DNA of 32,000 nt. Source: an archaeon. Lineage in GTDB: Archaea > Iainarchaeota > Iainarchaeia > Iainarchaeales > CSSED10-239. Position 1 is the stretch's first letter; each line of letters begins with the position of its first letter. Position numbers and translations under genes: made by a program. Positions 2,190 to 21,281 of the stretch are shown here, piece after piece. The notes below the pieces were generated by a model. The model searched no databases, was not told the origin of the DNA, and was given only the letters and a program-made list of their open reading frames with translations. The stretch is from NCBI GenBank assembly GCA_041657425.1, contig JBBABY010000009.1, positions 1-32,000 on the forward strand. The letters are read 5' to 3'.

Positions 2190-2546
2190 ATGAGTGAAAA
2201 GGTAACAGAACCTTCAAAAGTAATAGCACCTTCAGCAGAGATGATTGCTGAACTCAAGAATAGGTATGGAGTGCTCTTTAAGGTTTCATACAACAGTTCA
2301 AGCAACTATCTTATTCGTCCAATCACCAGGGCAGAATACAAAGACGTGGTCGCAGTTATCGAAACCGTCGATGCTAAGCTCCGCCCTGAACTTCACGATG
2401 AGAACGTGGTTAAGTTAGGCGTCGTATGGCCCACATTGCCGCCCGAGTTCTTCACCACGAGTGCTGCTGGACAAGTTCCCAATCTAGCTCTACAGATTAT
2501 GGAACGCTCTGGCTTCTCGAACAACGTGGATGTCACGGAAGTATAA
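2190..2546 (+). CDS. tail assembly chaperone-like protein, short paralog (118 aa)
   Basis: AGGAGG (2176-2181) lies 8 nt before the ATG. It is a small protein sitting between the tube-like and tape-measure-like genes, the canonical chaperone slot. It is a clear paralog of the N-terminal half of the next gene. Confidence 0.55.
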   Translation: MSEKVTEPSKVIAPSAEMIAELKNRYGVLFKVSYNSSSNYLIRPITRAEYKDVVAVIETVDAKLRPELHDENVVKLGVVWPTLPPEFFTTSAAGQVPNLALQIMERSGFSNNVDVTEV

Positions 2547-2571
2547 ATCCCTTCCTGCCATGGTCTTCACT

Positions 2572-2608
2572 GGGGCTAGGGTCTTATGGGCCCTGGCCCC
2601 TTTTATTT
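2572..2608 (+). terminator. intrinsic (rho-independent) terminator-like hairpin plus T-tract between the two chaperone paralogs
   Basis: GGGGCTAGGGTC (2572-2583) pairs with GGGCCCTGGCCCC (2589-2600). The stem is 12 bp (9 GC, 1 AT, 2 GU) with loop TTATG, followed immediately by TTTTATTT (2601-2608). Confidence 0.6.
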
Positions 2609-2618
2609 AGAGGGGCTT

Positions 2619-3260
2619 ATGATAGAAGTAGACTTAAAGCGTAAGTATGGTAGGGTCTTCCGAGCCGTTCTCCCATCAAAGACAGTCTTGTACTTCAGAT
2701 TACTAAGCAAGACTGAGTATGATATGTTTGCGCGGCTGCACCCTTCCATGGAAGCTGACATTCCCTTCGAAGCAGAAGAGTATGTTATTAATACTGCTGT
2801 TGTATATCCAAGCATTCAGGAGCTAGATCTGCACTGTGGAGCTACAGAGCTCAAAGCTGTAGTTCCTCACATTATAGTGGCCTCAGGATTCTCAGATCTC
2901 GAAACCTTCTTAGCTTCGCTAGCCGAGAAGAGAGAAGAGATGGGCCTGCTTAGTGAGCAGATTATAGCTACTATCATGAGGGGTATGCCAGCGTATCGTC
3001 GCGAAGATATCCAGAAGTTGAACTATGAAGAGATAGCTCATCTCCTAGCGCTAACTGAAATCATTACTGGCGAGATGCTTAACATTGGTGATGTCCAAGA
3101 AGATACAGCTAATCCGTTATACCAAGCCAATGCTAAACCTAAAGCTCCCAGAGTGGCTATGCCAGACATAGCCCATATGAGTGAAAGTGAAAAGGCCGTA
3201 GCCGAGAAGCTTAGACAAAAAGGACTAGAGGCTCTCTCCGCTATTCGTGCCAGAAGGTAA
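2619..3260 (+). CDS. tail assembly chaperone-like protein, long paralog (213 aa) with basic C-terminal extension
   Basis: ATG 2619 is preceded by AGAGGGG (2610-2615). The track's ATG at 2586 sits in the hairpin loop and has no SD. The N-terminal half parallels the previous gene: DLKRKYGRVFRAV / ELKNRYGVLFKV, SKTEYDMF / TRAEYKDV, VVYPSI / VVWPTL, IIVASGFS / QIMERSGFS. About 100 extra residues end in KPKAPRV...RQKGLEALSAIRARR. Stop is TAA 3258-3260. Confidence 0.55.
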   Translation: MIEVDLKRKYGRVFRAVLPSKTVLYFRLLSKTEYDMFARLHPSMEADIPFEAEEYVINTAVVYPSIQELDLHCGATELKAVVPHIIVASGFSDLETFLASLAEKREEMGLLSEQIIATIMRGMPAYRREDIQKLNYEEIAHLLALTEIITGEMLNIGDVQEDTANPLYQANAKPKAPRVAMPDIAHMSESEKAVAEKLRQKGLEALSAIRARR

Positions 3261-3264
3261 CTAA

Positions 3265-6200
3265 GTGCCGCTCCCACCTAGCATGCTCAGAAATGCGACA
3301 CTTGGACTTGGAGGCCTAGCCGGCCTTGCTGGCCTTCGTTCAGATACTGCCTCCGACTTCAATGATCAAGGTTCCAAAGATACCCCTACAAGTGTAGCTT
3401 TCGCTGCTGGTATAGGTGCTACTACAACCGCAGCCGTAATGCTTGGCGTCAACTATGCCATGAAGAGGGCTTCTACTCCCGCGCTACAAGGGAGGTATGG
3501 CGCTCTTGGAATGGCCCTTGTTGCTGGCGGCGCCTACGCAACAGGTAGGATCTTCAGCAGATATAACCCAGCTAAGATGTATGAAGGAGATCAGCGTAGT
3601 GCTCTACCCGGAGTGCTTCAAGGTGTCATGGGCCTTGGGGCCTTATGGTATGGCGGCAAGGCTATATCGCCTTACCTTGCCAGGAGTGTCGCCAACTTTG
3701 ACATGCAGGCTAGGCCTTGGTTCAGTGCTGTAGGTAGAGCTTTTGATGAGACCCAGATCGACTTCAAGAATCTACCTAACTCAGTACGAGACTTTAAGAA
3801 TGCATTCACCCAGAATCTTCAAGCTACTAGAGAGATGTACGCTCATAACCAGCTTGAGGGCCCGCCTCTTACCAAATATCTATCCTTATACAGCAATATA
3901 ATAAACTCAATTAGTGACCCAGCAATGCGCGGCACAATGCTGGAGGGTGCTAACCAGCAATTGCTAAAGAGGCACTCATTAGCTGATCTGAATGTTATTA
4001 ATGGAATAAGGTCTGCTACGTTTAGCGACCTACTACATCATAGTGGCCTTCCTGTAGATTCGCCTGTTATGGGAAAGGCGAGAACAGTTGCCAACCTATT
4101 ATATGATAAAGTAATGTTCGATAAGTTGGGCCTTGGTAAGGGTGTCATGTTTGACACCAGATCCAAGAAGATATTGAATCTTAATGCATACACTCCAGGG
4201 AGTATGCTCAAGAGCGGGTTACTAGGATTCGAGAAGAACTTTACGATCCCAGTGGCCGGCTTCAATCCCATATCTATCCTAAGGCCTAGAGAGATATCGG
4301 GGTACTTTAGCCAAGGTCATCAGTTCCACTACTTCCCAGCTGGTTCAAAACTTGGTCCTAAAGCAACTGAAGTTGCAGGTCCTATGGGAGCCTATTTTAG
4401 CGCTGGGCGCCTATATGATGTAGCCACCCGTAGAGATACGGGTATTAAGGGATCACTAGTTAAGGCGGGGCGCTGGGTTGAAGGCGAAGTAAGACATCAC
4501 CAAGAGACCCGCTTTGGTGAGACGATGCGGATGTTCCATGGTGAAGGACTAGGTAAAGAGGCTTCACCCGGCTTTATAAATATTGGTCATACACAAGTCC
4601 GTGCTCCGGATACACTAATCAAGAAAGCCCTAGCATTCATAGAGGCAGGGCCACAGACGGGATTCCCTCAAGTCCAGTCTGTTCCAGAGAGATTTATAGA
4701 TGTCGTAAAGAATAAGAAGGGCATTAGCGGAGTAGCTAACGCTATCAAGGAATCTATGCGTATGCTTCTCGGGGAGACCGACGAAGCTGCCGCATATATG
4801 AGCCCCTATAGGAAGCTAGGGTCTAGTACTAACGTATTCCCTACCATGGCTGCAGGAAAAGGATCCTCTTTCGCCTTCTTAGCAGATAAGGATATCCCTG
4901 GCGCAGCAGCATTCTTCTTAACGAATAGGCCTACTCGTCTGCTGGAGAGTCTAGGCGTTGGCGGATTCGATCCAAGAACTACTCGTACTGCCACAGATGT
5001 CATTAAGAAGTTGGTCCTCTATCGCTTCCTCCCCGTGTATCTAGCTTGGAAGAGCCTGCAGTTTACCAACGACATGTCCAATGCGGCTCTGGGAATAGGG
5101 CCCCTAGAAGCAGGCGCCTCTCTATTTGCTGGTGCCAATGTAGGCATGGCCTATATGAGGGACATCCTTGGTATCACTGGGATGGCTCAATACCTGGAAG
5201 AACTAATGCCTGGATTTATTACTGCTTCAGGTCCTAGTCTAGCTAGAGGAATAGGCCTTCCGATCCTAGGCGGAACTAAGTTCGGCCCCAAGGGCTTGGT
5301 TGCAGGGATGGCAGCTTCCGCGGCCTTGGGCTTCGGTGGAGATATAACCAAGACAGGAACAGAGAAGGCCGATGAGTATTTTGGTGATGCCCGCGTGCCC
5401 CTAAAGCAGGGCAGGTGGTGGATGTTTGGCAGCACACCTTTCGAAGGTGGCAAGGTTAAGGAATTCATCCCCAACTGGTATCAGCGAGTTATGTCTCGCT
5501 ATCAATATACAGATGTCCAGTACGGCTCAGAACTCAAGTACTGGAGCCAATACCTCAACCCTTGGTACATGTCCGAGTACCACTACTATGATCGTCCTTA
5601 TCCATTAGCCACAACAGGGATAGAAGAGATCCCGTTTATTGGCCCAGCTCTAAGTTCAATAGCGCCTACACGCTCAATGCACGGAGATGAGTTTAGTACT
5701 GGAGGTGTTCTAGGAACAGGCATTGGTCCGGGATCAGGATTAGGTCTTGGTGGTGGCCCAGCAACTGCTATGTTAATGCCAACCATAAGTGGGCCTACAG
5801 CTGTATACCCACAAGAAACAGTTGGCGGGTATATAGCTGGCACTCCCGAAGAAGAGGGAATTGCTGGTGGTGTAAACCCCATGCTTGGCGGTCTGCCTCC
5901 CGACGCTGCCAGCCTGCCTAATGGACTGGGGGGAACAGCTGGCGAAGAAATCTATCGCATGACAGAGTACATGGGCTTATATGGTTTTGGTATTGGGGCT
6001 ATTAAGGAACAGCTAACTGGAAGCCAAGACTTCTTTACGGGACCACAGATCCAATCAGCACGGTATATGGATAGTGCTGAGAGATCTTACTGGGAACAGA
6101 ATGTGGGTGACCCATTTGGTTATACTGAAATGTTCCGTCGTTTCCTCCCTCACCGCCGTAGGCAGATTGACCAAGTCAATCCCATCCCTAATACAATGCC

Positions 6201-8358
6201 TGACTGGATGCCAGGACCTGAGTACTTCCAGAACTTTAGGATAGGGGATCCATACTCGAAGGTAGACTTCGGCGAGATCCGACTGCCAGGTAGTGGCTAT
6301 GAAAAGTTCTATACGCCAGGAGCTGGCGTTGTTGAGGCTGCCCGTAGTCTAGGCACCCAGAACCTAGGGATAGCTAATACATATCCTGAGTACTCAATGT
6401 TGGATATCTATAGAATCACAGGAGACGTAGCACCATGGAGCCCACAATACAGGTACGCTAAAGCATACCTTGGCTCTATGTCGAAGGCAGGACTTCTAAC
6501 TCCAGAGGGTGAAGAAGAACGTAAGAAGGTTGCCAAGGAAGTACCCCTACGTAAGCGCAGATGGGATTTCACAGAGCGCAAATTCTCTGAGGGCGATCTA
6601 CAAAATGAACTGCTTACTGTATCATCCTATCTTGGCAATGGCGCCTTTGAAGCTGAAGGCCAAAGGGGAATCTTTAAGCTAGCAGGGATTAAGAGTTTAA
6701 CTCCCGAAGGTGAGGAAAGACTAAAGTCTAACTTAACACCTGGAAGCACGATTCTTGCTCAGACCCTAGCTGACGAACGCTATAGGACTAAGGACCTTAC
6801 GGTCCCAACAACCCCAGTTATAATTGGTGGTCTCAATAGAGGACTTGTAACATCTGGTGAAGCAGAGTTCGATAAGACTGGACCCGGCGAAGTATTCGCC
6901 CCTATGAATCTTAAGGTCCAGTACAATCCCATCGAGCGAATGGTTGGAGGCCTCTGGGAGGATATAAGTCACGCAGACGTTCCCTATCTCCAAACGAAGT
7001 TCATGCACAAACGTACCGCTCTTGAAGAGTGGGAAAGAACTATGGTCTACGGTAGAGACTCGTCCTCGTGGTCGAGACCTATCCGAGACTTCGTCGAACC
7101 CCTAATACATAAAATGATGGGCGGAGGCATTGTTGGCTCTGCCCTACTAGGTGGTGGCCTAGGTTGGTTTACAGGTGCTACCCGTAGTGCAGAAACAGAA
7201 GTGGGTGCTTCTACTATAGGCGCTCTAGCAGAGGCTGCGGGCAAGGCTGGCAAGGTATCTCTAGCGGGTAATCGTACTAGGATACTAACTGCGGGGGTAG
7301 GAGCTATCATTGGTGGAGGCCTCGCCTTGGCAGGAGGAGTACTTGGACTTGGCGGGTCAAATTGGGTACCAGAGTATAGAAAGAAGATCTGGGATACGGA
7401 ACAGTACTTTGATACTCTAGAGTATCTTAAGTACCAAGGGCTCTACGCTAAGTCTCGTAGGGAATCTATGCAGCAGACGGGCATGGATCCCGAAGAGCTT
7501 ATGCAATCTATTGAGGCATCACGTCGTGCTAGAAAGACTATCGCCGATCAACTCAAAACTGAGTATGGAGACCTGGGCCTACAAAGAAAGAAGACCGAGA
7601 GCGCCAAGGAGATAGAAAGCATTAAGAAGCGCAGAGATCTTGTAGCTGCCCAAATTGAAAGACTAAGTTATCAGAAGTGGACAGAGGATGCTGCACTAGA
7701 TGCTGTTGCTGGGACCCCAGTTGGTAGAGCTCTTGAGTATCGCAAGAGGGCTACATCAACTATGTATGGAGCGGACCCGAGGGGAGACTTTGCCAGTATC
7801 ATGAGGGCCCTCCCCAATAAGCAACGTGAGTTCTTCCAGGCCTTTGTACAGGCGCCCCAAGAAGAGCGTTCTAGAATCCTTGAGACCACACCTCTTGGGA
7901 TGCGCCGCTTCCTTGAAGCCAAGTGGGGCATGGATGTAGAAGCCAATCCAGACCTAACAAGTTACTTCCAGGAGAACTACCTGCCAGCAGAGAACTGGGT
8001 AGGATGGCATCCTGCGGTTAATCTGGATGATGTCAAGCTTAAGGTAGCGCGCCAAGAAGGCCTAGATATACATGACTTTAACCTATGGGAGTCATCGGAG
8101 CGTGAGCTAAGTAGAAAACCCTATGTGCCCCTAATCGACCCATTCACAGCCAGTGACGATCAGGGTCAGATGAAGAGCCAGATAGCCGACATCATAGGCG
8201 GTCAAGGTTATAATAACTATGATATCAGTGTTACTCCCTATGCTTCTGATAGAGAGGGAATCAACTTGAACTTTGATGTCAAGTATGCTACCCAGCCTGA
8301 CGCTGTCGAATACATACGTAAAAACCTAGGCAACCTAATGAGCCCCGCATATGGCTAA
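3265..8358 (+). CDS. giant tape-measure-like / ejection protein (1697 aa) with multiple glycine-zipper hydrophobic segments
   Basis: GTG 3265 has GAAGG 7 nt upstream; an alternative start is ATG 3283. It sits directly after the chaperone pair. Gly/Ala-rich hydrophobic segments occur at aa ~10-130, ~600-690 and ~1285-1365. Examples are LGLGGLAGLAGL, YGALGMALVAGGAYATG, GLVAGMAASAALGFGG, GGGIVGSALLGGGLGWFTGA and AIIGGGLALAGGVLGLGG. A charged coiled-coil-like stretch lies at aa ~1400-1470. I recognised no enzymatic motif. Confidence 0.5.
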   Translation: MPLPPSMLRNATLGLGGLAGLAGLRSDTASDFNDQGSKDTPTSVAFAAGIGATTTAAVMLGVNYAMKRASTPALQGRYGALGMALVAGGAYATGRIFSRYNPAKMYEGDQRSALPGVLQGVMGLGALWYGGKAISPYLARSVANFDMQARPWFSAVGRAFDETQIDFKNLPNSVRDFKNAFTQNLQATREMYAHNQLEGPPLTKYLSLYSNIINSISDPAMRGTMLEGANQQLLKRHSLADLNVINGIRSATFSDLLHHSGLPVDSPVMGKARTVANLLYDKVMFDKLGLGKGVMFDTRSKKILNLNAYTPGSMLKSGLLGFEKNFTIPVAGFNPISILRPREISGYFSQGHQFHYFPAGSKLGPKATEVAGPMGAYFSAGRLYDVATRRDTGIKGSLVKAGRWVEGEVRHHQETRFGETMRMFHGEGLGKEASPGFINIGHTQVRAPDTLIKKALAFIEAGPQTGFPQVQSVPERFIDVVKNKKGISGVANAIKESMRMLLGETDEAAAYMSPYRKLGSSTNVFPTMAAGKGSSFAFLADKDIPGAAAFFLTNRPTRLLESLGVGGFDPRTTRTATDVIKKLVLYRFLPVYLAWKSLQFTNDMSNAALGIGPLEAGASLFAGANVGMAYMRDILGITGMAQYLEELMPGFITASGPSLARGIGLPILGGTKFGPKGLVAGMAASAALGFGGDITKTGTEKADEYFGDARVPLKQGRWWMFGSTPFEGGKVKEFIPNWYQRVMSRYQYTDVQYGSELKYWSQYLNPWYMSEYHYYDRPYPLATTGIEEIPFIGPALSSIAPTRSMHGDEFSTGGVLGTGIGPGSGLGLGGGPATAMLMPTISGPTAVYPQETVGGYIAGTPEEEGIAGGVNPMLGGLPPDAASLPNGLGGTAGEEIYRMTEYMGLYGFGIGAIKEQLTGSQDFFTGPQIQSARYMDSAERSYWEQNVGDPFGYTEMFRRFLPHRRRQIDQVNPIPNTMPDWMPGPEYFQNFRIGDPYSKVDFGEIRLPGSGYEKFYTPGAGVVEAARSLGTQNLGIANTYPEYSMLDIYRITGDVAPWSPQYRYAKAYLGSMSKAGLLTPEGEEERKKVAKEVPLRKRRWDFTERKFSEGDLQNELLTVSSYLGNGAFEAEGQRGIFKLAGIKSLTPEGEERLKSNLTPGSTILAQTLADERYRTKDLTVPTTPVIIGGLNRGLVTSGEAEFDKTGPGEVFAPMNLKVQYNPIERMVGGLWEDISHADVPYLQTKFMHKRTALEEWERTMVYGRDSSSWSRPIRDFVEPLIHKMMGGGIVGSALLGGGLGWFTGATRSAETEVGASTIGALAEAAGKAGKVSLAGNRTRILTAGVGAIIGGGLALAGGVLGLGGSNWVPEYRKKIWDTEQYFDTLEYLKYQGLYAKSRRESMQQTGMDPEELMQSIEASRRARKTIADQLKTEYGDLGLQRKKTESAKEIESIKKRRDLVAAQIERLSYQKWTEDAALDAVAGTPVGRALEYRKRATSTMYGADPRGDFASIMRALPNKQREFFQAFVQAPQEERSRILETTPLGMRRFLEAKWGMDVEANPDLTSYFQENYLPAENWVGWHPAVNLDDVKLKVARQEGLDIHDFNLWESSERELSRKPYVPLIDPFTASDDQGQMKSQIADIIGGQGYNNYDISVTPYASDREGINLNFDVKYATQPDAVEYIRKNLGNLMSPAYG

Positions 8359-11300
8359 TATGGAACACTATAACCGTCTCCGCGGTATGTTCAAATTTGA
8401 CCTGCCCAAGTATGAGGTTAGGGGTAGTGGTCTCGTTTGGCATAATGCCTCACTTATTAGTCCACTCGATATACGCATAGGCACGGGCAAGGGTGGAGAA
8501 GCCGTTTACCAAGAACTTGGTGACTGGCTAAATAAGCACGCCGCTCGACTGCTAAGTCTCCCCAAGGCGAGACAGCAGGAGTTAGTTCAAGAACTGGGCT
8601 CAACCGCAGAACAGATGCTAGACATCGCTCCTAAGATAACAGGAGCTGGTGGTGTTTATGTTCCTATGTCCTCTGCCTTACGTAAGTCTATGGCTATTGA
8701 CCTCCCTGCTTATAAGGGATATAAGAGCCTAGAGGGACAGAGGGGAACAACTAGTGTAGCCAAGATGGGCTACTATAGAAATTGGGGAAGACGAGTAGAA
8801 GCTGCAGGCGGCGCCTTTGGTGGACTATCTGATGACAACATTGGTAACTTCATATACGCTAGAGAAGATATCGGCCGCTATATGGCTGGCCAAGGATCAT
8901 ACCTTAGCTCAAGAAAGCCTACAACTCTTGAGAACTACCTGGGCCTAAGTGGTAGTACGCCGGGCGCTAGACTAACAGCTGACGCTCTTTATACGGCAGA
9001 GCGCGTGCTCCATCTGCAAGACCAGCAGAAGTTATTCACACATGGTTCTGCATCGAGTGCAATGCACGATCGCGTAGCCGCCCACCTATATAATACAGGT
9101 AAGATTGTCCAAGCTACTATCCCTAACGCTCAGGCCCTCCGAAGCAGCAGTGTGGCTGGCCTACTACTAGGCGGACCTGCCATCGGTCGTAAGGGTATCT
9201 TTGGAGATATTAAAGCACAGCGCGCTTCCGTAGAAGCCTTTAGTCTGACTGCCCTTGGGCGCTGGTACGATCCCGCAGGCCTTAATGAATTAATGCAGAA
9301 AGTACATACACCTGGAGCTGTTCTCAGCTCGGAAGAGTATGTACGTCTAAAGGCATCGACACCTGGGCGAGCCGAAGATCTGATTAGTGTACTTGATAAG
9401 TTCAGACTTGAGCCGAATGCCGGAGGTGTCAGCCCGGAAGTACGGGCCTACGAGAGCCTGGGGAAGAGAGTCCCGCTCGAAGTCTCTGTGGCTGCAGCCG
9501 CCCATGAAGGTGATGCCCTTAATCTAACTATGCAAGTTAGCCACGGTCTTGTAGAAGGCAACAAGGTTTCCTTCCTCGACAGGAAAGCACGTCTTGGAAC
9601 TCTTGAAGATGCTGGCTTTGATGCTGCCCTAGGAGATATCGTGTCAGCTGGAGGCTTGTCTGGTAGAGAAGCTGCTGCCGTTAGAGGGGCAGATGTAATC
9701 CTTCCTCCTATCAGTGCAAAGGGCGGAGATGTACAGCGTATTATGCGCCAGTGGTGGGAACCATATCTCAACGCCCTAACCATCCCAGAAGCTGGGGTCT
9801 TTACTGAAGAACAAACTGTAGCCAACTTAGATACCATCGCTGCTGGATTTGAGAAGACTTTAGGAACCAAGGCCAAAGTTATCCGTCTAGCTAACGGCCA
9901 GAGAAGACTGGAAGTTCCGGGTGTAACAGCATTCAATATGAAAGCCACCCGCTATCTACATGACCTACTAGTACAAAGCGGACAAGGCGCCGTTGCTGAA
10001 GACATCGCTTCTCTTAGAAGACTGCCTGTTAATATGCACGCCTTACCACAAGAGTTGTTCTCTAAGATTGGCCCCGAGGTTGGTGGCGTAAGCGCCCTAG
10101 AGGCTCTTGGGTTCCAGATCGAGGGCTACGGTGGCCTAGCCCAGCAAGTAATGAATGCAACTGCACCTCGTGGCGGTAAACGTAAAGCTATGATGAACGA
10201 GATGCATTATATAAGCGCATCCTATTCTGGTATCCCAGGATATACAACTCCCACTAACAAGATCTCCTATAAGGATCTTGATTATAGAATGATACAAACC
10301 TTCGCTCCTGGCCGTGGTGGTATTGTGCCCCAGCCTCCCATAGGGGAGGGTAACCCTCTATCAATCCTGTACCACGAGAAGATGGCTAAAGCAACTAAGC
10401 CTACGGGCAGTGAGTTTAGTGCTTACTATATGCCAACAGAAGTAGAGCTACCTGTTGATGTAGTAACCAAGAGTGGTAAAACAACTAATAAGATCCTATT
10501 CACTAGTGCTAACTTAAAGAATATAAGAGGCGGTGCTGCCGGGACAGTGCGCAGCAGCGAACAACTACGCATAGAGCAAGCAATACTAGCCAACATAGCA
10601 GGCACAGGTGGGAACCTAAGCCAGCCAGAACTGCAACGCTTAGTTACCAGATATGAGAGTGAGCTTGAGACTGTTATAACTGGCAAGGAAGGCTTATACA
10701 ATAAAGCTATCCTAAAGGGTAGATCTTATGGTGCCCAAGGTTCACTAGGCTTCTTATCCGACGAAGCTGAGCGGGGACTACTAGGTCAGTTCGAAGAGGG
10801 AGCCGATGCCCTTGGTGGCATGGTTGGCGTCACAGAAGAACAGTTCATTAAGCTACGTGGTCTAAACGCTTTAAGGAAGCTCCCTGCAGAACAACGTCGT
10901 AGCGCCATAGAGTCCATGGTTCGCCAAGGCGAGTACATGATCTCTAATAGAAACCCATCTCCTGCTGGTATGGCTGTAGCCCGCGTTGGTATTATAGACT
11001 ATCTATCCGATAGGACCAAGGCAGGTATGATCACTTATAATGATCAGATCCTTGAGTCTGCAGGTATGGGCCTGTTCAAGAGGGCTGACATCGACGGAGA
11101 TATGGTTCGTATTATCAGTGGCTTCTCCAGAACGAGGAGCGCCCGCACGTCAACATATGACAAGCTAGCCAAGGACGCTTTTGTCTCTATGCTGCCCCAG
11201 TACCGGGCCGCTCGTACAGAAGCTGAGTCTAAGATGGTATCTGCTGCCGAAAAGATCGGTAGCCTAAGTTCCTTTGAAGAGTTTATGGGATCTGAAGAAG

Positions 11301-12352: not shown

Positions 12353-12356
12353 TAAT

Positions 12357-15300
12357 ATGGCAGATAAAAGATCACAAGAAGATATAGCCGTTGGATCTTG
12401 GACTAATGAAGCATCTAACTTGCCAGGCGCAACGCGCCTTGGTTACATCTGGCTCAACGTCCCTCCCATCTCTATTTCATACGACCTGAATACCAATAAC
12501 GATACCATGATGACCATGCGTCAGCAAGGCCCTAGTATTATTAAGACGGGTCGTACTATGATGACGTTCGAAATGCAGCTTGTGTTTACCGGCCGCCACA
12601 TGATCAATACAAAGCTAGCGCCTATACTGGCCATGATCCGCCGCTCCCCATATACTACAATCTCTAACGAGACTGTAGCTAAGATCCTTGGAGAAACATC
12701 TCAGGATGCAGATAGCCTTAAGGGTCTTGTAGAAATACCTATTGTGGTTAGTGGCTATACACTCAATACCGAACCCTCCCTTCCCGACACTATAACTATG
12801 CACCTGGCATTCATGATCTACAACTATACATCCTTCCTTAAGAGTTGGGTATATCTTAAGCAGGGTGTGCGCAGAGATAGCAATGGTCGCGAGACAGCTT
12901 TTAGAGAAGACGGTGTCCCCATCATTGAACCAGCGTTATCTGCTGAACATAGTAACCTATACACCCAGTGGTGCGATAGCCTAATCAAGTCTAAGGATGA
13001 TATTAGCAGTTTCATGTTCGATGGAGAAGTTGCGCCCACAGAGATTGGTGCATCTAAAAAGACTCGGGCAGGTATAAAGAATGAGTCGTCCTATACCGAT
13101 CTACAAACTAGGGTTGATATAAAGGACCGCGCGGTCCTACGCAATGGAGATGCAGTTATCAAGGTTGGTGACTCCTTTCCTAATACCCCTACCAATGTAA
13201 CCATTGGGTACCATGTCTATGAACTAAGTGATGCTCTTAATCTAGATCTGGGTGCCTATCAGAGTAAGAGGACCGGGGAGTGGATCTGGACAAAGGAAGA
13301 CATGAGGCGGGATATCGTTGGCTTCATTAAGGATGAGTTTGATGTCACGGTTGATGCTAAGGAAAATGTAGAGACCCTAGTTGTTAAGTACCGTGAGTAT
13401 CTAGAAGAACTCCCTGTATACAATGTTGCCTTCAAGTACATTAAGAAGGTATCTATTACTAATACTAGCTATCGTGTAATCGACGGCATGTCATTAAGGC
13501 GCTCAGTGCCTCTATCTGTTCTACCCCTGGTGTCATCTCCCGTTCCTACGGTACAGTATCTGGGCGGTGCCACCACAGACATCAGCTTTTCCATTACCTC
13601 AACCAGCGAAGACGATGTCAGAAAGTTAACAACTATCTTCGCAAAGGTAGAAGAGAGCTGTCGGAACAAAATTCACCACAGTGGATCCCAGTTGATTTAC
13701 GTTGAATCTGATTTAGCCAACTTGAATGGCACATTTGTCATCACGACCAAAGGTATCAACGCCCAGTCAGTTCCCTCGCTTCCTGGGACCTTTGTCATGA
13801 ATGTCAGTCTATCCGAACAGACTGAGGTCTCTAGGTCTCTTGTAATGCCAGAACAGTATAGTACAGAGAGACGCAAAGCCATTATTAAGGACATCCTGAC
13901 CTATTATAAGAAGTGGGATTCGTCCAAGATCATGGCTGGCGACCGCTATATATTCGATAAGCAGAAGCCATCTTATATCGAAACCATCCTTATCCCGTCA
14001 CTTGTTAGGGTAATACGTAATGGATATCTGCGTTATCTTAAAGAGCAGAACTTTGGTGTTGCTACTCCAGGAGAGGACTTCTTAAGTGCTGCAGATCTAA
14101 TGTCTATCCAGCCGGAGACCAGTAGTAATGTTATGCAAGTCCAGGATGAACGTAGGGCAGTTAACCTAAGCCAAGAAATGCAAATAGGAATAGAGTACGA
14201 AACAAGTACAGGTTTCTGGACAACTGAAAAGATGCTTGGTTCATCAAGACTAACATCCTTCATGAATCCTATCTGGAAGATAGTAACCGGCCAACTAGGA
14301 CATCATGAGTTGATAGCCACCAGCGCTAGGAACAACCGCGTTTGGACAGGCCTAATAAGGTGGCTTATTACTCTACTGCCACCGGGATCTGAAAAAGATC
14401 AGCACGGCCAGATGGTAACTAATGAACAAAAGCAGATTATGGGTGCAGTGGAAGCTATTAACAAGTCCGACTCTAGAAGGTTAGCTCTCCTGCTGCGTAG
14501 CCCCAAACTATTAGATTGGGAGCAGCGCATTATGGCTGGGGAAGATGTAGCCCTCTTCGAGTCTTCCAAGACCATTAATGCTGACGCCCAGATAGACTTC
14601 GACTCCTACAAGAAGTATGAGTATCTCTATCCCAAGGACAAAGATGGCAAGCCTAGCTTTGATGACAAGAAGGCTGTAGAGGACTTCGAGTCCAAGAAGA
14701 TTCTATCCTGCTATCCAGATCTTGGGATCCCTTTCAGGTATGCCTGTGTTAATAGCAAGGGCGAGCAACTCTATACCTATGTCAATGTGAAAGAAGACAA
14801 TACCAAGGTTCGTGTGAAGATGGGGAATAGTTCTATTATGAGACTTGATGGGACGCCCAGCCCAGCAACATCGCTAACTATAGATCTGATTGCTAGAGTA
14901 GGCGGCGCTAGAACAAGACTAAAACAGCCTACAGACTATACGGTTTCAGGTGTCAAGGTTTCCTTTACAACTGTCCCTTCAAGAAGTGACTATGAGATTG
15001 AGATCAACTACTCGACTAGAAAGCCCGTTACTCTTCTAGCTACCAATCCAGCCTTCTATCTAGCCGACCAGACATTGCTAGACTCGCAGGAGACACAGAA
15101 GCTCCTTGCTGAAAAACCTGCTGATATCAATGCTAAGCATGATACCCTGGGGTTCAATAGCCCTGTGACCATTGAGAGGATCTTCGGGACAACCGTAGTT
15201 CCATCTAATGTCATCTCCAATACATGGAGTACAAGCGGCGTTAATCAATTCAGTGCTAGCCTGTCAATGGAAGACCCTGCCGGCAACAAGGTTTCAGCAG

Positions 15301-18300
15301 ACCAGTCGCAATCCGACAAGTCTATTAAGAAGGCTAGAGAAGATATAGATAAACTAAACGCTTCTCGTAGGACCACAGGTGATCTATCTAAGGTTCCACA
15401 GTCTCCTAATATAAGCAATATTGGAACCATGAAGAGTCTTGATGACATCGTTGCCACCCCAAGGATCATGGGGCAGCTAACAGCTTATGGCCAGGAGACT
15501 TCAGATACTGTTATCGCTGAAGCTCAGCTTGAACATAAGATCTTCAAGTCAACCTTTAGAGACTACAATGCTGATATTGAGAAGAGCGTGGGCGATATTG
15601 TTGCGGAGGCCCGCAAAGACATCTATGCCAATCCTAAGTATTACTCTATGGATAGGGCTTATCCTACCTACAAGTTATACTTCAGGGAAGAGAATGCCCC
15701 ACAGTGGTTCTTGTTCGACAACTTCTTCGACTATAGATCACTAGAATCTATAAGGTTCTGGAGAGAGAAAGCTTCTCCGGTAGCCCGTTGTCATATCGTT
15801 CTTAATGACACTAACGGAACCCTAACTGATATTAAGGCCCTACTAGCCAAGGAATCATTCAATCCTGAGACTAGGAATACTAACGAGAGTCTAACAGATG
15901 CATCTGGCGAGAAGCCAATGCAGACACTATTCCTAACTCCAGGTACACAAATTCAGCTCAAGGTTGGATATGCAACTGACCCGGCCAACCTAACAACCCT
16001 GTTCAACGGGTTTATCACAGACGTATCTCCTGGTGAGAAGTACGAGATCATCTGCGACAGTTATGGCCTAGAGTTACTCAACGACGCCGATATGGGAATG
16101 CTAACAGGCTGGCTATGCCCGCCCAAGGCATTCATCTGGATGATGCTTCTAGACCCCAAGGTCAAGCACTTGGGAACACTATTCACACCATCCACACTGC
16201 CCACAGGCCTAAGCGATTGGTTCGATGGCCCTAGCTTCGACGACAACATCTACATTAATGAGCGCCATGAGCCTGATAAGATCCGTCTATTCCAGGCATA
16301 CAACGCTGATGGAATGAAGAAGTGGGACGTTCTTCAGGACATCGCTGCGGCACATCCTGGATTCATATGCCAGACAGCTGTCTTCGACGATCGCGAGACG
16401 GTCTTCTTTGGGCGCCCCGACTTCAACTATGCCTATACATCCGATCTAGGTACAGTTAGCTACTACCCAGATCTAAGCAATGAAGAGATAACTAAGGCCA
16501 TGAAGGCTGTTGCTGGAGACTATTTATCTGGAGCAGCTCCTCAAACTGCCTTTGGGAAGAGCTACGTAGCTAGCTCCCAGAGCCAGGATATCGCTAACTA
16601 CAACCAGAACAAAGAGAACATCGAGAACGCCCGCAAGCTTCTCGATGAGATTGGCAAGGATCCTAGCCAAGTAATTGGGTTTAACTATATGCAGTGGATG
16701 CCCTTACAGAAAGCCATCGATTCAACCATCCAGTTGTATCATGATAATCTATACAACGACTATCAAAATAACACCAAGGCTGGTGTGTTTGAACTAGTCA
16801 AAGAATACTGTAGATGCGTAGATCAGCTAAGTCAATTAGCTGCAGATATACAAACCCATGGTAACGTAGAGTATGACCTATTTGGTGGAGCCATGACGCC
16901 CGAGGCCAAGAAGAAGAGGGACGAACGCCGTAGGGCTACTATGGTTACCAAGCCCGCGGACATCTCTCTCTTCGATGTAACCGAAGCATCGAATAGAGCC
17001 CGACTAGATACCGAAGGCACAAAGGTCAAAGGCTTAGACGGTCGCAACCAGATCCTCGATAAGAGACTGGCCGTACTATTTGACAAGCTTAAGGTCTATG
17101 CTCAGCAGAATGGCTGGGTCATTGAGCTACGCGAGGGCTATAGAAATAAGCAAGATCAGGAAGCGGCTCTAACCGCTGGCTATAGCAACGCCATCTACGG
17201 CTTATCTCCTCATAGCTACGGTTTGGCTTTCGATATTGCGCTTCTATATAACAGCAGCTATTATCCTGGAGACGAAGCACTCCCCGGCGAAGTGGCAACT
17301 ATCTTTGAAACGCTAGGAGACTATGCCGAACTGTCTCTAGGTATGACATGGGGTGGTAGGTTCTCAAATCTCTATGACCCTCCTCACTTCGAGTTAAAAG
17401 GCTGGACTTCTGATAAGGCATATACAGATGCCAAAGCCATGGCAAAGTCAGCAAGAGCCGAAGAGCTCAAGCAGGCTCAGGCTAGCTCTAAGAAGAAGAT
17501 GGACGAGATTACCAAGCAAGGCAAAGCCGAAGGCGACGATAAGAGCAACCTTGATACAGCAACTATAGAACAAGGTGCTGGTAAGATTATTGAGTATAAT
17601 CCGGAAGACTATATCCGTGTGGCAAGACTAGAGAAAGAAGTTAATCTCCTTGGCTTAGCAGAGGCAGACTATCTGCCCATAGTTAGCGCAGGGGAGTCTT
17701 CGCTGCCATGGTATGACCTTCTCTTTGATGCGGGCACTAGCTCTGTAATTAAGGGATCCTCTGTTACATCTTTCGTTCCTCTAGTCTTCTTCCAACAGGA
17801 CTCAGATGTATGCCAACTTGTATACCAGGGCACAGGCGCCTGGGACTCTATCAAAGCTTTATCAACAGGCATGGATACAGGAGTAGTACAAGGTACGCCT
17901 AACTTAGTTGACCTGCAGAATGCAGCCAAAGCCCTTGAAGACAATATGAACCAGCAAGGTTCATCCGATGACAGAGACAAGCTTCTAGAACAAATGCGTG
18001 GCGCAGGAGCTTCAAGTAAGAAGGCTCAGTTTGCTGATACCTCAAAGAAGCTACAGGTCTTGAAGTTCTGGGATACAGATTCCAGTGATGTTGTAAAGGC
18101 AACCTCTAATGTCTATCAGAAGATAGGCATGCAATCTCCAATGGTTATCTACTTATGGAGAAGGATCCATGAGATCCTGGCCAAGCTAAAGGCCATTAGT
18201 GATCTACGGAACTCAGAGACTGCCCAGCTAAGTAACCTGTTTGAATGGCAGGGAAAGCTAAAGGTAGCCGTTGCGAATGCCTATTCGTCCAAGACTACCG

Positions 18301-20003
18301 AAGATCTGTTCATGAATGATGGATCAGCCGGCATGGTCATTGATCTGGGGACACCAGTCTTCTCTATTGTTGATAGACCATCAGATCCTCATATCGCAGT
18401 AAGGCAAGCGACCCCATCTAGTAAGGCAGATATAATCTCCTTCAGAGGTAGGATCTCAGAGACAGACCTCCAAGCCCACGTCGCTCTCAAGAACCTACTA
18501 CTAACTACTCTCTTGAATATGGATCCAAGACTACAAACTATGATGGCTGTAGCTGGCCGCCCGCCTACCAAGAGAAGGTTCCGCAGGTACCATGTTGTAA
18601 CTAGTTATGAGCACATAGTCAACAACAATATCAAAGCCACCTATGCCAACATGTGGAACAAGGTTAAAGTTATGTACAAGAGGCACGACCTCTTGTTAGA
18701 TTACTATATCCCTATTCTCCCAACACTTATCTTTGGTAGCAAACCCAGCAATCAATTTAACATCCAGGCTGGACAGACTCTAGATATGCGCGTAGTACGA
18801 GAGATTACTGTACCTATTGAGAATGCCAGGACTATCGGGCAGGCCCGTGCTTACGCCACATCTATCCTTGCCGAAGGGGTTCGCAATATGTATACTGGGA
18901 CCCTAACAATACTGGGCAACCCAGAGATCAAGCCTCATGATATTGTGTATGTATATGATGACTACACCAACATGTATGGACCCATAGAGGTCAAGAGTGT
19001 AAACCATATCATGTCAGCAGAGACGGGATTCATAACAATCATTGAGCCACATGCATACGTAGAACCACTTGGAGTTTCGTTCTCTAGACTAGCCCTTATT
19101 ATTGACATCATTGATACAGCATTAATCTTCTGGGCAGCTGGTAAGTTCGTCGCCGGTGGAGTAAGAGCAGCATGGCTGATTGGCAGAGAGGGCTGGGCTA
19201 AGGGCTCAGAGATCTTAGCCACAAGAGCAGCCAAGGAGATGGGGGCCAAGGTAGCAACAGCAGAAGCAGCTACTACTGAGTTATGGGCTGTTGCCTCCAA
19301 GAATACAACCCCTATTCGGAGACGTGCCTTAAGCAAGGCCCTACGTCGTAATGTTAATAAGCTTATTACAGACGAGAAGGCCGAGGGCGTTATGAAGGTT
19401 GCCCGTGAGAAGCTTCAGGGCCCACTGGGCACAGTAAAAGCCGAGGAACGCATCCTAGAAACTCTGAAGAGTGCGCGCCGTCTAAAGACTAAAAACACAC
19501 CCGCCCCCACTAAGACTATCTTTGAGCCGCCTAATAAGATAGAGGACTTTACAGGCGATGAGATACGAGAGGCACTCCAACACCTAGGCGTTGACCAGGC
19601 TGTTATCCAAAAGCTTTCTCGTACATCAGCACTTGAGACACTTGGAATGGCTAAGGATGTTGTTAAAAGGGTAGCCCAAAATCTGGGCAAGGATCCAAAG
19701 ACAGCCAAGCTCTTCCATCTAGGAATAATGCAGAAGCTCATGGTCCTAGGCCTTGGTCTTGGGGTCGGATACTTCTATATCTTTGCAGGCAAGGATGATA
19801 AGAACTATGCTTGCCCTCTCAAGATTACCCCGCTATCATATAAGGGCTCGCCTTATACAGCAGGGCTTGAAGGCCTAACCCACAAGGGTGGGGTCATGAA
19901 CATGGTCAAGGGAGAACTAAGAAGGTTCTGGGGATCTCTACAAACAGTCAACCAGGCCTTTGGATCTTGGTGGCGTAATAAGACATGGACGTTCGAGGAA
20001 TAA
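12357..20003 (+). CDS. giant baseplate hub fusion protein (2548 aa): gpD/gp27-like hub split by an insertion carrying an M15 peptidoglycan peptidase, with C-terminal membrane segments
   Basis: ATG 12357 lies 4 nt after the upstream tandem stop. Hub-like, M15 and membrane segments are detailed in the separate domain features. Its position immediately upstream of the spike, gp25-like and J-like genes matches Mu (gp44) and P2 (gpD) hub logic. Confidence 0.6.
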   Translation: MADKRSQEDIAVGSWTNEASNLPGATRLGYIWLNVPPISISYDLNTNNDTMMTMRQQGPSIIKTGRTMMTFEMQLVFTGRHMINTKLAPILAMIRRSPYTTISNETVAKILGETSQDADSLKGLVEIPIVVSGYTLNTEPSLPDTITMHLAFMIYNYTSFLKSWVYLKQGVRRDSNGRETAFREDGVPIIEPALSAEHSNLYTQWCDSLIKSKDDISSFMFDGEVAPTEIGASKKTRAGIKNESSYTDLQTRVDIKDRAVLRNGDAVIKVGDSFPNTPTNVTIGYHVYELSDALNLDLGAYQSKRTGEWIWTKEDMRRDIVGFIKDEFDVTVDAKENVETLVVKYREYLEELPVYNVAFKYIKKVSITNTSYRVIDGMSLRRSVPLSVLPLVSSPVPTVQYLGGATTDISFSITSTSEDDVRKLTTIFAKVEESCRNKIHHSGSQLIYVESDLANLNGTFVITTKGINAQSVPSLPGTFVMNVSLSEQTEVSRSLVMPEQYSTERRKAIIKDILTYYKKWDSSKIMAGDRYIFDKQKPSYIETILIPSLVRVIRNGYLRYLKEQNFGVATPGEDFLSAADLMSIQPETSSNVMQVQDERRAVNLSQEMQIGIEYETSTGFWTTEKMLGSSRLTSFMNPIWKIVTGQLGHHELIATSARNNRVWTGLIRWLITLLPPGSEKDQHGQMVTNEQKQIMGAVEAINKSDSRRLALLLRSPKLLDWEQRIMAGEDVALFESSKTINADAQIDFDSYKKYEYLYPKDKDGKPSFDDKKAVEDFESKKILSCYPDLGIPFRYACVNSKGEQLYTYVNVKEDNTKVRVKMGNSSIMRLDGTPSPATSLTIDLIARVGGARTRLKQPTDYTVSGVKVSFTTVPSRSDYEIEINYSTRKPVTLLATNPAFYLADQTLLDSQETQKLLAEKPADINAKHDTLGFNSPVTIERIFGTTVVPSNVISNTWSTSGVNQFSASLSMEDPAGNKVSADQSQSDKSIKKAREDIDKLNASRRTTGDLSKVPQSPNISNIGTMKSLDDIVATPRIMGQLTAYGQETSDTVIAEAQLEHKIFKSTFRDYNADIEKSVGDIVAEARKDIYANPKYYSMDRAYPTYKLYFREENAPQWFLFDNFFDYRSLESIRFWREKASPVARCHIVLNDTNGTLTDIKALLAKESFNPETRNTNESLTDASGEKPMQTLFLTPGTQIQLKVGYATDPANLTTLFNGFITDVSPGEKYEIICDSYGLELLNDADMGMLTGWLCPPKAFIWMMLLDPKVKHLGTLFTPSTLPTGLSDWFDGPSFDDNIYINERHEPDKIRLFQAYNADGMKKWDVLQDIAAAHPGFICQTAVFDDRETVFFGRPDFNYAYTSDLGTVSYYPDLSNEEITKAMKAVAGDYLSGAAPQTAFGKSYVASSQSQDIANYNQNKENIENARKLLDEIGKDPSQVIGFNYMQWMPLQKAIDSTIQLYHDNLYNDYQNNTKAGVFELVKEYCRCVDQLSQLAADIQTHGNVEYDLFGGAMTPEAKKKRDERRRATMVTKPADISLFDVTEASNRARLDTEGTKVKGLDGRNQILDKRLAVLFDKLKVYAQQNGWVIELREGYRNKQDQEAALTAGYSNAIYGLSPHSYGLAFDIALLYNSSYYPGDEALPGEVATIFETLGDYAELSLGMTWGGRFSNLYDPPHFELKGWTSDKAYTDAKAMAKSARAEELKQAQASSKKKMDEITKQGKAEGDDKSNLDTATIEQGAGKIIEYNPEDYIRVARLEKEVNLLGLAEADYLPIVSAGESSLPWYDLLFDAGTSSVIKGSSVTSFVPLVFFQQDSDVCQLVYQGTGAWDSIKALSTGMDTGVVQGTPNLVDLQNAAKALEDNMNQQGSSDDRDKLLEQMRGAGASSKKAQFADTSKKLQVLKFWDTDSSDVVKATSNVYQKIGMQSPMVIYLWRRIHEILAKLKAISDLRNSETAQLSNLFEWQGKLKVAVANAYSSKTTEDLFMNDGSAGMVIDLGTPVFSIVDRPSDPHIAVRQATPSSKADIISFRGRISETDLQAHVALKNLLLTTLLNMDPRLQTMMAVAGRPPTKRRFRRYHVVTSYEHIVNNNIKATYANMWNKVKVMYKRHDLLLDYYIPILPTLIFGSKPSNQFNIQAGQTLDMRVVREITVPIENARTIGQARAYATSILAEGVRNMYTGTLTILGNPEIKPHDIVYVYDDYTNMYGPIEVKSVNHIMSAETGFITIIEPHAYVEPLGVSFSRLALIIDIIDTALIFWAAGKFVAGGVRAAWLIGREGWAKGSEILATRAAKEMGAKVATAEAATTELWAVASKNTTPIRRRALSKALRRNVNKLITDEKAEGVMKVAREKLQGPLGTVKAEERILETLKSARRLKTKNTPAPTKTIFEPPNKIEDFTGDEIREALQHLGVDQAVIQKLSRTSALETLGMAKDVVKRVAQNLGKDPKTAKLFHLGIMQKLMVLGLGLGVGYFYIFAGKDDKNYACPLKITPLSYKGSPYTAGLEGLTHKGGVMNMVKGELRRFWGSLQTVNQAFGSWWRNKTWTFEE
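15639..16430 (+). other. gpD / Mu gp44 / gp27-like hub domain, N-terminal part
   Basis: The segment YYSMDRAYPTYKLYF...LESIRFWREKASPVARCHIVLND...PGTQIQLKVGYATDPANLTTLFNGFITDVSPGEKYEIICDSYGLELL...WDVLQDIAAAHPGFICQTAVFDDRETVFFGRP follows the recognisable late-control-D / VgrG-N pattern. That pattern is a subject strand, then xVxLGY...LFxGxIt...G...I...d, then a wDxLxxlA...g...F block. Confidence 0.5.
17052..17405 (+). other. peptidase M15 (VanY / L-Ala-D-Glu peptidase, Peptidase_M15_4-like) domain
   Basis: Motifs present are ILDKRLAVLFDKLKVYAQQNGWVIELREGYRNKQDQ, SPHSYGLAFDI (H1619 and D1626, H-x6-D) and GMTWGGRFSNLYDPPHFELKG (H1677). This is the S-x-H-x-x-G-x-A-x-D plus WGG...D-x-x-H zinc-ligand signature of the M15 cell-wall peptidases found in many phage lysins. 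Confidence 0.8.
18572..19068 (+). other. gpD / Mu gp44-like hub domain, C-terminal part
   Basis: IGQARAYATSILAEGVRNMYTGTLTILGNPEIKPHDIVYVYDDYTNMYGPIEVKSVNHIMSAETGFITIIEPHAY matches the characteristic C-terminal gpD pattern (A...a...l.....tG.l.l.Gnp.l..g..v.......g.y.v..V.H......Gf.T.i.). It lies about 700 aa downstream of the N-terminal hub part. Confidence 0.45.
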
Positions 20004-21271: not shown

Positions 21272-21281
21272 GGATAGGCAT

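Follow-up and report, generated by a model that had tools for sequence, protein, structure and literature searches.

In the Thermus phage P23-45, gp96 is a virion two-barrel RNA polymerase fused to the tape measure (Chaban et al. 2024, PMC10770324), and tail delivery of a cell-type RNA polymerase has so far been demonstrated only for the P23-45 group of Thermus siphophages. Here we describe three consecutive giant open reading frames (ORFs), which according to the ORF listing fill 16,739 nucleotides (52%) of the plus strand of a 32,000-nucleotide stretch of contig JBBABY010000009.1 (the window). Judged from gene order and similarity, the trio is, gene for gene, the gp145/tape-measure-slot/hub module of contractile-tailed phages resembling 0305phi8-36. 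Our preferred reading, to which we assign a probability of about 0.6, is that the trio forms an inner-tail and hub module, in which the slot protein ORF2 is mostly a divergent two-barrel polymerase, ORF3 is a hub bearing an M15 peptidase and ORF1 is a compact virion protein. The gene in the tape-measure slot bears a catalytic signature typical of cell-type RNA polymerases, and the phage thus probably uses its tail to inject a transcription enzyme of its own. The observations comprise homology, synteny, domain content, motif conservation and the positions of hydrophobic segments.

The locus resembles that of P23-45 in several respects. In both, a polymerase-like module lies in the tape-measure gene, with its elements in the same order, and the distance from the conserved lysine to the aspartate loop is similar (508 residues in ORF2 and 451 in gp96). 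Both proteins also contain a hydrophobic segment, and both modules encode a metallopeptidase. Other features are new with respect to P23-45. The tail is contractile, as genes for a gp25-like protein and Baseplate J follow the trio, whereas P23-45 is a long non-contractile siphovirus. The polymerase-like module belongs to a separate and much shorter protein of its own sequence family without an obvious ruler: gp96 has 5002 residues, with an N-terminal polymerase and a long ruler behind it, whereas ORF2 has 1333 residues and essentially no ruler. The peptidase is carried by the hub here and by the tape measure in P23-45. We found no description of such a polymerase module in contractile-tailed phages in the literature.

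The tail module itself has been described in 0305phi8-36, including its two-gene chaperone and its “hyperplastic” hub (Hardies et al. 2007, PMC2147016). The window is similar to 0305phi8-36 in gene order and context, the two-gene chaperone included. The respective homologues of ORF1 and ORF3 are gp145 and the hub gp147, while ORF2 occupies the slot of gp146, which differs in being 2537 residues long and lacking DxDxD. A second relative, the cultured Acinetobacter phage vB_AbaM_ME3 (ME3), features the trio gp35/gp36/gp37 between the chaperones and the baseplate. In the ME3 annotation, gp35 is a gp145 homologue and gp37 a hub homologue, and gp35 also gives a direct match to ORF1. The intervening gp36 (1603 residues), annotated with no function, reads SREPAQG...GGDHDQD and has a hydrophobic segment ~120 residues from its C-terminus; the ORF2 module profile hits gp36 solely near the aspartate loop (independent E-value, iE, 0.007). 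The proteins of the two trios differ in length.

More distant are the functional analogues, namely gp66 of phi14:2 (a crAss-like phage), the N4 virion RNA polymerases and T7 gp14/15/16, all large virion proteins delivered for first transcription or as an entry channel. Those proteins, however, are capsid cargo of short-tailed phages, and no sequence or family match connects them to the trio. The N4 virion polymerase has a different, T7-like fold.

The trio and its counterparts in related phages

The three genes are arranged as follows.

3265-8358, plus strand: ORF1, 1697 residues, GTG start
8351-12352, plus strand: ORF2, 1333 residues, ATG start
12357-20003, plus strand: ORF3, 2548 residues

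An earlier, sequence-only reading of this DNA had described three coupled giant ORFs, and both the ORF listing and the junction sequences confirm it. ORF1 and ORF2 overlap by 8 nucleotides (ATGGCTAA), so that the ATG of ORF2 overlaps the stop codon of ORF1, and a gap of 4 nucleotides separates ORF2 from ORF3. Overlaps of the ORF1/ORF2 type recur in relatives, where they span 8, 11 and 17 nucleotides (loci L007, L008 and L010, respectively). The GTG codon of ORF1 is preceded by an AGAAGG ribosome-binding motif, and ORF1 homologues likewise begin with MPxP. The start of ORF2 is less certain, as the public gene call begins at Met13 (1321 residues).

In tblastn searches, ORF1 and ORF3 match nearby genes of the Bacillus jumbo myophage 0305phi8-36 (gp145 and gp147) and of the Moorella phage MTATph1; ME3 is matched by ORF1 only. 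The order shared by the annotated relatives is sheath, tube, tube paralogue, two chaperones, gp145, gp146 (“hypothetical tape measure”), gp147 (hub), V and J. Nine metagenomic loci were retrieved via ORF1 homologues, seven of them close (L005-L011) and two distant (L022 and L023). In all nine, the genes follow one order, namely capsid, a Big_5 protein, sheath, two tubes, two chaperones and the ORF1-, ORF2- and ORF3-like proteins. In each of the seven close and the two distant loci, as well as in ME3, an ORF2-like gene follows the gp145 homologue and immediately precedes the hub gene. The contigs carrying ORF1 homologues are long, 105-190 kb in several close relatives and up to 220 kb in more distant ones. 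By these sequence comparisons, the window derives from a large, uncultured, contractile-tailed phage related to 0305phi8-36 and ME3.

A polymerase-like module in the slot protein

ORF2 belongs to a small and highly divergent family. An exhaustive HMMER search retrieved 16 homologues among 1.84 billion representative proteins, whereas word-indexed searches, started from either ORF2 or its alignment, retrieved nothing but ORF2 itself. Orthologues in L005-L011 are 19-24% identical to ORF2, compared with ~50% for ORF1 in the same loci. Conservation was read from the close-clade alignments A1 (ten sequences) and A2 (eight sequences), from a set of 14 sequences, and from 16 sequences spanning three deep clades. 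The positions of interest are listed below.

9557-9589, plus strand: candidate double-psi beta-barrel B (DPBB-B) lysine pair, ORF2 residues 403-413, GNKVSFLDRKA, with K405 and K412
10928-11101, plus strand: candidate double-psi beta-barrel A (DPBB-A), ORF2 residues 860-917, with G860, R867-x-P869, G873, R878 and the metal loop D913-x-D915-x-D917
11354-11371, plus strand: bridge-helix-like motif (motif level), ORF2 residues 1002-1007, KKFTTG
11999-12349, plus strand: C-terminal anchor of ORF2, with a glycine-zipper segment (residues 1217-1235) and a conserved tail of ~95 residues

The RNA polymerase-like signature noted from the sequence alone is present, and comparative data make it much stronger. 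Within the module, only K405, K412, G574, R867, P869, D913, D915, D917, G1007 and K1049 are invariant in the 16 sequences. In a family that has diverged by ~80%, the invariant positions are almost exclusively hallmarks of two-barrel polymerases, i.e., GxKx6K, RxPxxPxG, DxDxD and a bridge-helix-like K..G. At the level of motifs, the lysine pattern GxKx6K[GA] found ~500 residues upstream of DxDxD is comparable to GDKMAGRHGNKG in the E. coli beta subunit. The RxP motif precedes the aspartate loop by 35-46 residues, as does NRAPTLH in cellular enzymes. In the close-clade alignments, G860, R867, P869, G873 and R878 are kept or nearly so, with the consensus EGxYxxxxRPPxAPxGxAxxR. K1002 and T1006 of the bridge-helix-like motif are invariant in A1 and A2, and the lysine is missing from a single sequence in the set of 14.

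The slot proteins of L022 and L023 (1979 and 2381 residues), distant positional orthologues of ORF2, are closer to the cellular pattern. They read GTKILVNGEKA, then IRFPTIH (L022) with GDADGD after 35 residues, IRYP...NADSDGD, and KKGIGYLS (L023). The corresponding E. coli sequences, which were verified, are GDKMAGRHGNKG, NRAPTLH...NADFDGD and KTANSGYLT. The ORF2 family profile is collinear with these distant proteins (E = 6e-4, domain iE 5.8e-5, four targets).

Comparison of ORF2 with the P23-45 gp96 family using hhalign gave a single collinear alignment with a score of 25 (shuffle maximum 21). Identity extends to 11 of 15 conserved residues, and none of 24 column shuffles exceeded 6. This alignment pairs EGNK405 with EGNK328 of gp96, R867/P869/G873/R878 with R741/P743/G748/R755, and D913/915/917 with D779/781/783. 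The order of elements in ORF2 (lysine barrel, RxP...DxDxD barrel, bridge-helix-like motif) is that of gp96. In the best alignment to E. coli beta-prime, RxP falls on R425/P427 and DxDxD on D460/D462/D464. P23-45 gp64, a validated polymerase, carries NRRPDLPTG...ADYDGD, and RxPxxPxG is thus common to gp64 and the ORF2 family. When a profile of the aspartate-loop region was compared with PDB, AR9 beta-prime was among the top matches (E = 0.05). Taken on its motifs, ORF2 quite likely carries a very divergent single-chain two-barrel RNA polymerase module.

The C-terminal 140 residues are the best-conserved part of the ORF2 family. The segment GW..LA.G..LAG.GLS.R.P lies ~100 residues from the C-terminus in all 14 aligned members, and 12 of these pass the hydropathy cut-off. 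Among 1,396 scored sequences, which include five real C-termini and their shuffles, the anchor profile ranks the L022 and L023 C-termini first and second, ahead of every shuffle. The L023 C-terminus in turn matches the corresponding end of gp146, the assigned tape measure (iE 5.9e-6). Direct comparisons of ORF2 with gp146 and MTATph1 coding sequence 27 (CDS27) by BLASTP and hidden Markov models gave nothing, and the ORF2 C-terminal profile scores gp146 no better than shuffles. ORF2 shares the C-terminal anchor of gp146 via L022 and L023, by this transitive route only. Only the last ~60 residues are conserved among the tape measures of this lineage (Hardies et al. 2007, PMC2147016).

Upstream of the anchor, slot proteins vary, and their total length ranges from 1213 to 2537 residues across relatives. 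The polymerase-like module is found in ORF2’s clade, in L022 and L023, and in ME3 gp36, but is not universal in this tail module, as the slot proteins of 0305phi8-36 and MTATph1 lack DxDxD; 0305phi8-36 encodes a YonO-like polymerase elsewhere in its genome (Iyer 2021). Since the anchor is shared and the upstream content varies, the slot protein is modular, combining a conserved C-terminal anchor with exchangeable enzymatic cargo. In the L023 slot protein (L023:15608-22750), residues 317-428 weakly match RNase_T/DEDD exonucleases (E = 0.004, below the cut-off), which suggests further enzymatic cargo in some slot proteins.

The hub, the gp145 homologue and the hydrophobic segments

The remaining features of the trio lie in ORF3 and ORF1.

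17049-17591, plus strand: M15 (LAS-type) peptidoglycan peptidase insert in ORF3, residues ~1565-1745, between hub blocks two and three
19074-19790, plus strand: C-terminal hydrophobic segments of ORF3, residues ~2240-2275 and 2452-2478
3394-3555, plus strand: N-terminal hydrophobic segments of ORF1, residues 44-62 and 79-97
6598-6879, plus strand: staphylococcal nuclease-like oligonucleotide/oligosaccharide-binding (OB) fold domain of ORF1, residues ~1112-1205
7114-7350, plus strand: glycine-zipper hydrophobic pair of ORF1, residues 1284-1302 and 1344-1362

Sequence similarity identifies ORF3 as an enlarged baseplate hub of the 0305phi8-36 gp147 family (T4 gp27/P2 gpD type). ORF3 matches PHROG 20474, the gp147 family, with E = 1e-55 in three collinear blocks (residues 391-486, 1097-1243 and 2073-2317). 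PHROG 52 (tail protein) also matches, and BLASTP aligns ORF3 collinearly in three blocks with both gp147 and MTATph1 CDS32. Pfam’s own gpD model did not match ORF3. The role of gp147 as a hub, and its link to T4 gp27, are taken from Hardies et al. (2007, PMC2147016).

The murein peptidase that had been recognized in ORF3 from its sequence is supported by Pfam PF13539 (E = 1e-10; 42.5 bits, with a curated cut-off of 25). The zinc-ligand pattern H-x6-D ... H is intact (SPH1619SYGLAFD1626 and PPHFE). PHROG endolysin families 465, 2649 and 6523 also match, as does the L-Ala-D-Glu peptidase of PDB entry 2vo9 (E = 0.007). The hub homologue of L011 has ~320 fewer residues at this position and no lysin match, indicating that M15 is an inserted, exchangeable module of the hub. 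In gp147, transglycosylase, NlpC and M23 domains have been reported instead of M15 (Hardies et al. 2007, PMC2147016).

ORF1 residues ~550-1690 are 29-31% identical to gp145 and its counterparts in MTATph1, WH1, Edson and ME3 in tblastn searches, with 31% identity and 478 bits against the gp145 family. The gp145 protein of 0305phi8-36 is a virion protein detected by mass spectrometry. Among the 43 ORF1 homologues, one group, found on long contigs of phages, shares ~50% identity; a more distant one, at 25-30%, includes gp145. ORF1 homologues of relatives range in length from 1263 to 2012 residues. In the ORF1 family alignment (A3), 97 columns are invariant and rich in W, Y, P, G and R, as expected of a folded protein rather than a ruler. 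AlphaFold2 modelling of residues 540-1697 (1158 residues, 37 sequences) yielded a compact, not extended, structure, with a predicted local distance difference test score (pLDDT) of 78.6 and a predicted template modelling score (pTM) of 0.78. In Foldseek searches of the predicted viral structures in BFVD, ORF1 matches only its own family (A7KUR9 and relatives, E 1e-29 to 1e-47). We assign ORF1 to the gp145 family of virion proteins; its compact fold is confidently predicted and has no solved relative. The suggestion that it acts as a ruler for a tail of ~250 nm is not sustained, as the fold is compact and the gene lies outside the tape-measure slot.

The OB-fold domain was the only ORF1 match in a Foldseek search of PDB (2rdf/2khs, probability 0.99, template modelling score 0.51-0.56, E 0.2-0.3), and PF00565 is present in one ORF1 homologue. 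ORF1 was considered as a nuclease; the staphylococcal nuclease-like fold is present, but the catalytic positions D-T-P-E, read by eye, are not conserved in A3, and the domain is probably not catalytic. Several ORF1 homologues (4) carry intein/LAGLIDADG domains, as does the tube paralogue gene of L007 (L007:5818-7626); inteins are unusual in structural tail genes. Their value as a sign that ORF1 is an enzyme is weakened by the occurrence of one in the L007 tube gene.

Hydrophobic segments occur in all three proteins and were scored by the Kyte-Doolittle scale and by a crude insertion-energy scale. Of the six Gly/Ala-rich places named in the sequence-only reading, five were recovered; the exception, at nucleotides ~5080-5340 of ORF1, fails both scales and corresponds to confidently predicted packed helices in the AlphaFold2 model. 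The N-terminal segments of ORF1 score 1.74 (Kyte-Doolittle) and +1.9 and +5.6 kcal/mol, and N-terminal hydrophobic segments are also found in gp145 (residue 33) and MTATph1 (residue 32). G1296 and G1346 of the zipper pair are invariant in A3, and gp145, MTATph1 and metagenomic homologues have segments in matching positions. In ORF3, one segment directly follows the last hub block and the other lies ~200 residues further on. Similar pairs follow the last hub block in L011 (residues 1750-1788 and 1933-1959) and gp147 (residues 1419-1444 and 1507-1528), and at least one such segment does so in MTATph1 CDS32 and ME3 gp37. Overall, the ORF1 and ORF3 pairs have positional counterparts in the homologues from 0305phi8-36, MTATph1, ME3 and metagenomes.

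The Gly-rich segments might never enter a membrane and instead form buried helices or a plug in the tube or hub, the DNA conduit being formed otherwise. We regard this as doubtful, although likelier than the other alternatives. All segments are only marginally hydrophobic, with crude insertion energies that are all positive (+1.9 to +5.7 kcal/mol), and they could be buried in the pre-ejection fold. The ORF1 stretch at nucleotides 5080-5340 is modelled with confidence as packed helices. Other ORFs of the window, including the soluble Baseplate-J protein, also give a few stretches within this range, and hydrophobicity alone therefore proves little. In contrast, the positions of the segments are kept while the surrounding sequence diverges, and the GxxxG/AxxxG zipper pattern is typical of oligomeric membrane helices. 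Conserved position and zipper pattern together are real evidence for the segments, above chance. Moreover, the hub and slot positions match those of proteins thought to be membrane-inserting in other phages (Chaban et al. 2024, PMC10770324). All three proteins thus carry conserved hydrophobic segments, as would be expected if tail-lumen and hub proteins are expelled and come into contact with the host membrane, and ORF1 may be an expelled, membrane-inserting tail protein.

Competing readings, proposed function and the wider contig

Several points weigh against a polymerase in ORF2. Pfam, PHROG, NCBIfam and PDB sequence searches with ORF2 gave no match, and PDB searches with ORF2, A1, A5, A6 and the L023 module gave no significant polymerase. 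None of the matches to known polymerases is significant, with hhalign E-values of 0.05-0.13 for gp96 and 0.18 for rpoC, at probabilities of ~1% or less, and of 0.27 for gp64; the activity of gp96 has been shown, whereas ORF2 is known from sequence. The AlphaFold2 model of ORF2 (8 sequences) has a pLDDT of 45, and only residues ~270-450, which are beta-rich and include the lysines, reach 60-85. Foldseek found no relevant PDB match for this poor model, and the double-psi barrel fold is consequently not seen. The half-motif RPPxxPxGxxxxR (10928-10984, residues 860-878) resembles the C-terminal motif of the aminotransferases 8-amino-7-oxononanoate synthase and serine palmitoyltransferase (PDB 1bs0 and 2w8j, E = 0.005-0.02), which also accounts for the top A5 matches. 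We take this resemblance as chance convergence and as a warning against reading short motifs alone. Finally, gp146 and MTATph1 CDS27 have no detectable polymerase module, and the evidence for this phage is at gene level.

These points are the reason for grading the assignment as likely rather than certain, since it rests on motifs where fold prediction failed and profile matches are non-significant. Families of the two-barrel superfamily typically lack such similarity to one another (Chaban et al. 2024, PMC10770324).

ORF2 could alternatively be a tape measure or tail-lumen scaffold only, with DxDxD, RxP and the lysines forming a structural or metal site (e.g., a Ca2+ loop) or part of a different enzyme. 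Its location in the tape-measure slot, its possession of the slot’s C-terminal anchor, the failed fold prediction, the lack of significant polymerase similarity and the aminotransferase-like half-motif would all fit. DxDxD-type loops bind calcium in unrelated proteins too. This explanation is nevertheless unlikely. The four motifs are ordered and spaced as in single-chain two-barrel polymerases, their residues are almost the sole invariants over three deep clades, and distant orthologues read RFPTIH, NADSDGD and GYLS. The glycine that a DxDxDG calcium loop needs after the third aspartate is absent from ORF2, which also lacks the tandem repeats and long heptad regions typical of rulers.

A T7- or crAss-like ejectosome, in which all three proteins span the outer membrane, wall and inner membrane and ORF1 doubles as the ~250-nm ruler, would account for the conserved hydrophobic segments, the lysin and the polymerase-like module, but is very improbable, as the sheath, gp25 and J genes indicate a contractile tail whose tube crosses the outer layers, Pfam, PHROG and NCBIfam gave no match to T7 gp14/15/16 or crAss cargo, ORF3 is a structural hub rather than cargo, and ORF1 is compact (pTM 0.78). 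The ejected channel, wall-cutter and polymerase envisaged from the sequence survive in part as a function; they are not an alternative to a ruler plus hub, being the known gp145/slot/hub module. It would be the tube of a contractile tail, rather than the proteins themselves, that crosses the outer envelope layers.

Under the preferred reading of a polymerase-bearing inner-tail module, the presence of the proteins in the virion is taken from their 0305phi8-36 homologues, and we infer ejection, membrane insertion and polymerase activity. Upon sheath contraction, the hub would be pushed across the outer layers by the tube, and its M15 domain would open the murein locally. The lumen proteins ORF1 and ORF2, together with the hub's C-terminal portion, would be expelled, and their marginally hydrophobic glycine-zipper segments may jointly enter the cytoplasmic membrane and there form or line a DNA conduit. 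The ORF2 polymerase, tethered by its C-terminal anchor, could then transcribe the first genes during DNA entry, as proposed for P23-45. More tentatively, and at somewhat less than even odds, large contractile-tailed phages related to 0305phi8-36 and ME3, the present one included, may as a broad group carry a single-chain two-barrel polymerase as the slot protein. ORF2, anchored by its glycine zipper beside the membrane segments of ORF1 and the hub, would then form with them a membrane-bound entry complex coupling DNA translocation to first transcription.

If the ORF2 family is active, the strategy of P23-45 would also be used by contractile-tailed phages of soil and water metagenomes and by the cultured phage ME3. 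Polymerase delivery through the tail lumen would then be a widespread strategy rather than a curiosity of Thermus phages, and would account for how phages of this size could begin transcription without relying on the host. A slot protein that is almost all polymerase would raise the question of what sets tail length in this clade. The system would be tractable for asking how an enzyme of ~150 kDa passes a 4-nm tube, and whether the zipper segments of three tail proteins jointly build an inner-membrane conduit. The ORF1 family adds a confidently predicted fold without a solved relative.

The tail genes flanking the trio are listed below.

41-532 and 1284-2171, upstream of the trio: two tube paralogues, PHROG 9206
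2190-3260, plus strand: two small genes (118 and 224 residues) where 0305phi8-36 has its two-gene tail chaperone gp143/gp144, assigned by synteny only
20855-22538, plus strand: gp25-like sheath initiator, then Baseplate J

The small-gene pair precedes the ORF1 homologue also in L005-L011. Matches of the gp25-like gene are weak (PHROG 975/43 and Pfam PF10934/PF04965), and the J gene matches PF04865 Baseplate_J with E = 1.5e-21. Large baseplate or fibre proteins are encoded beyond these two genes. PHROG 9206 labels both tube products “major head protein”, a label inherited from the RefSeq record of 0305phi8-36. Notes inside that record name gp140 and gp141 as tail tube and tube paralogue, and the label looks like a propagated mis-annotation. 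The single sizeable minus-strand gene of the window outside the plus-strand genes (529-1266) lies between the two tube paralogues, and two relatives also have a minus-strand gene between the tubes (L005:7513-8007 and L010:7505-8233), marking a recurrent slot. Across the trio, opposite-strand ORFs are short, and no tRNA, Rfam family or tandem repeat was found in this region.

The contig measures 47 kb, has a GC content of 47% and lies within a genome bin of 1.1 Mb. The GC content of 16 of the 19 other contigs of the bin is 26-30%, and the remaining three deviate (37%, 62% and 50%). Given this difference in GC content, the contig is probably a mis-binned phage fragment, and the organism of the bin is therefore not to be taken as the phage host. 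A search of a phage collection returned no near-identical DNA. Outside the window, the same contig encodes an 880-residue protein (34077-36719) whose carbohydrate-binding domain of F5/8 type C (discoidin; PF00754, E = 3e-9) makes it a likely receptor-binding protein. A fourth giant gene (39002-46738) encodes a protein of 2579 residues that consists nearly entirely of collagen triple-helix repeats (PF01391, E = 1e-191), presumably forming a very long fibre. Curly fibres are a known trait of 0305phi8-36.

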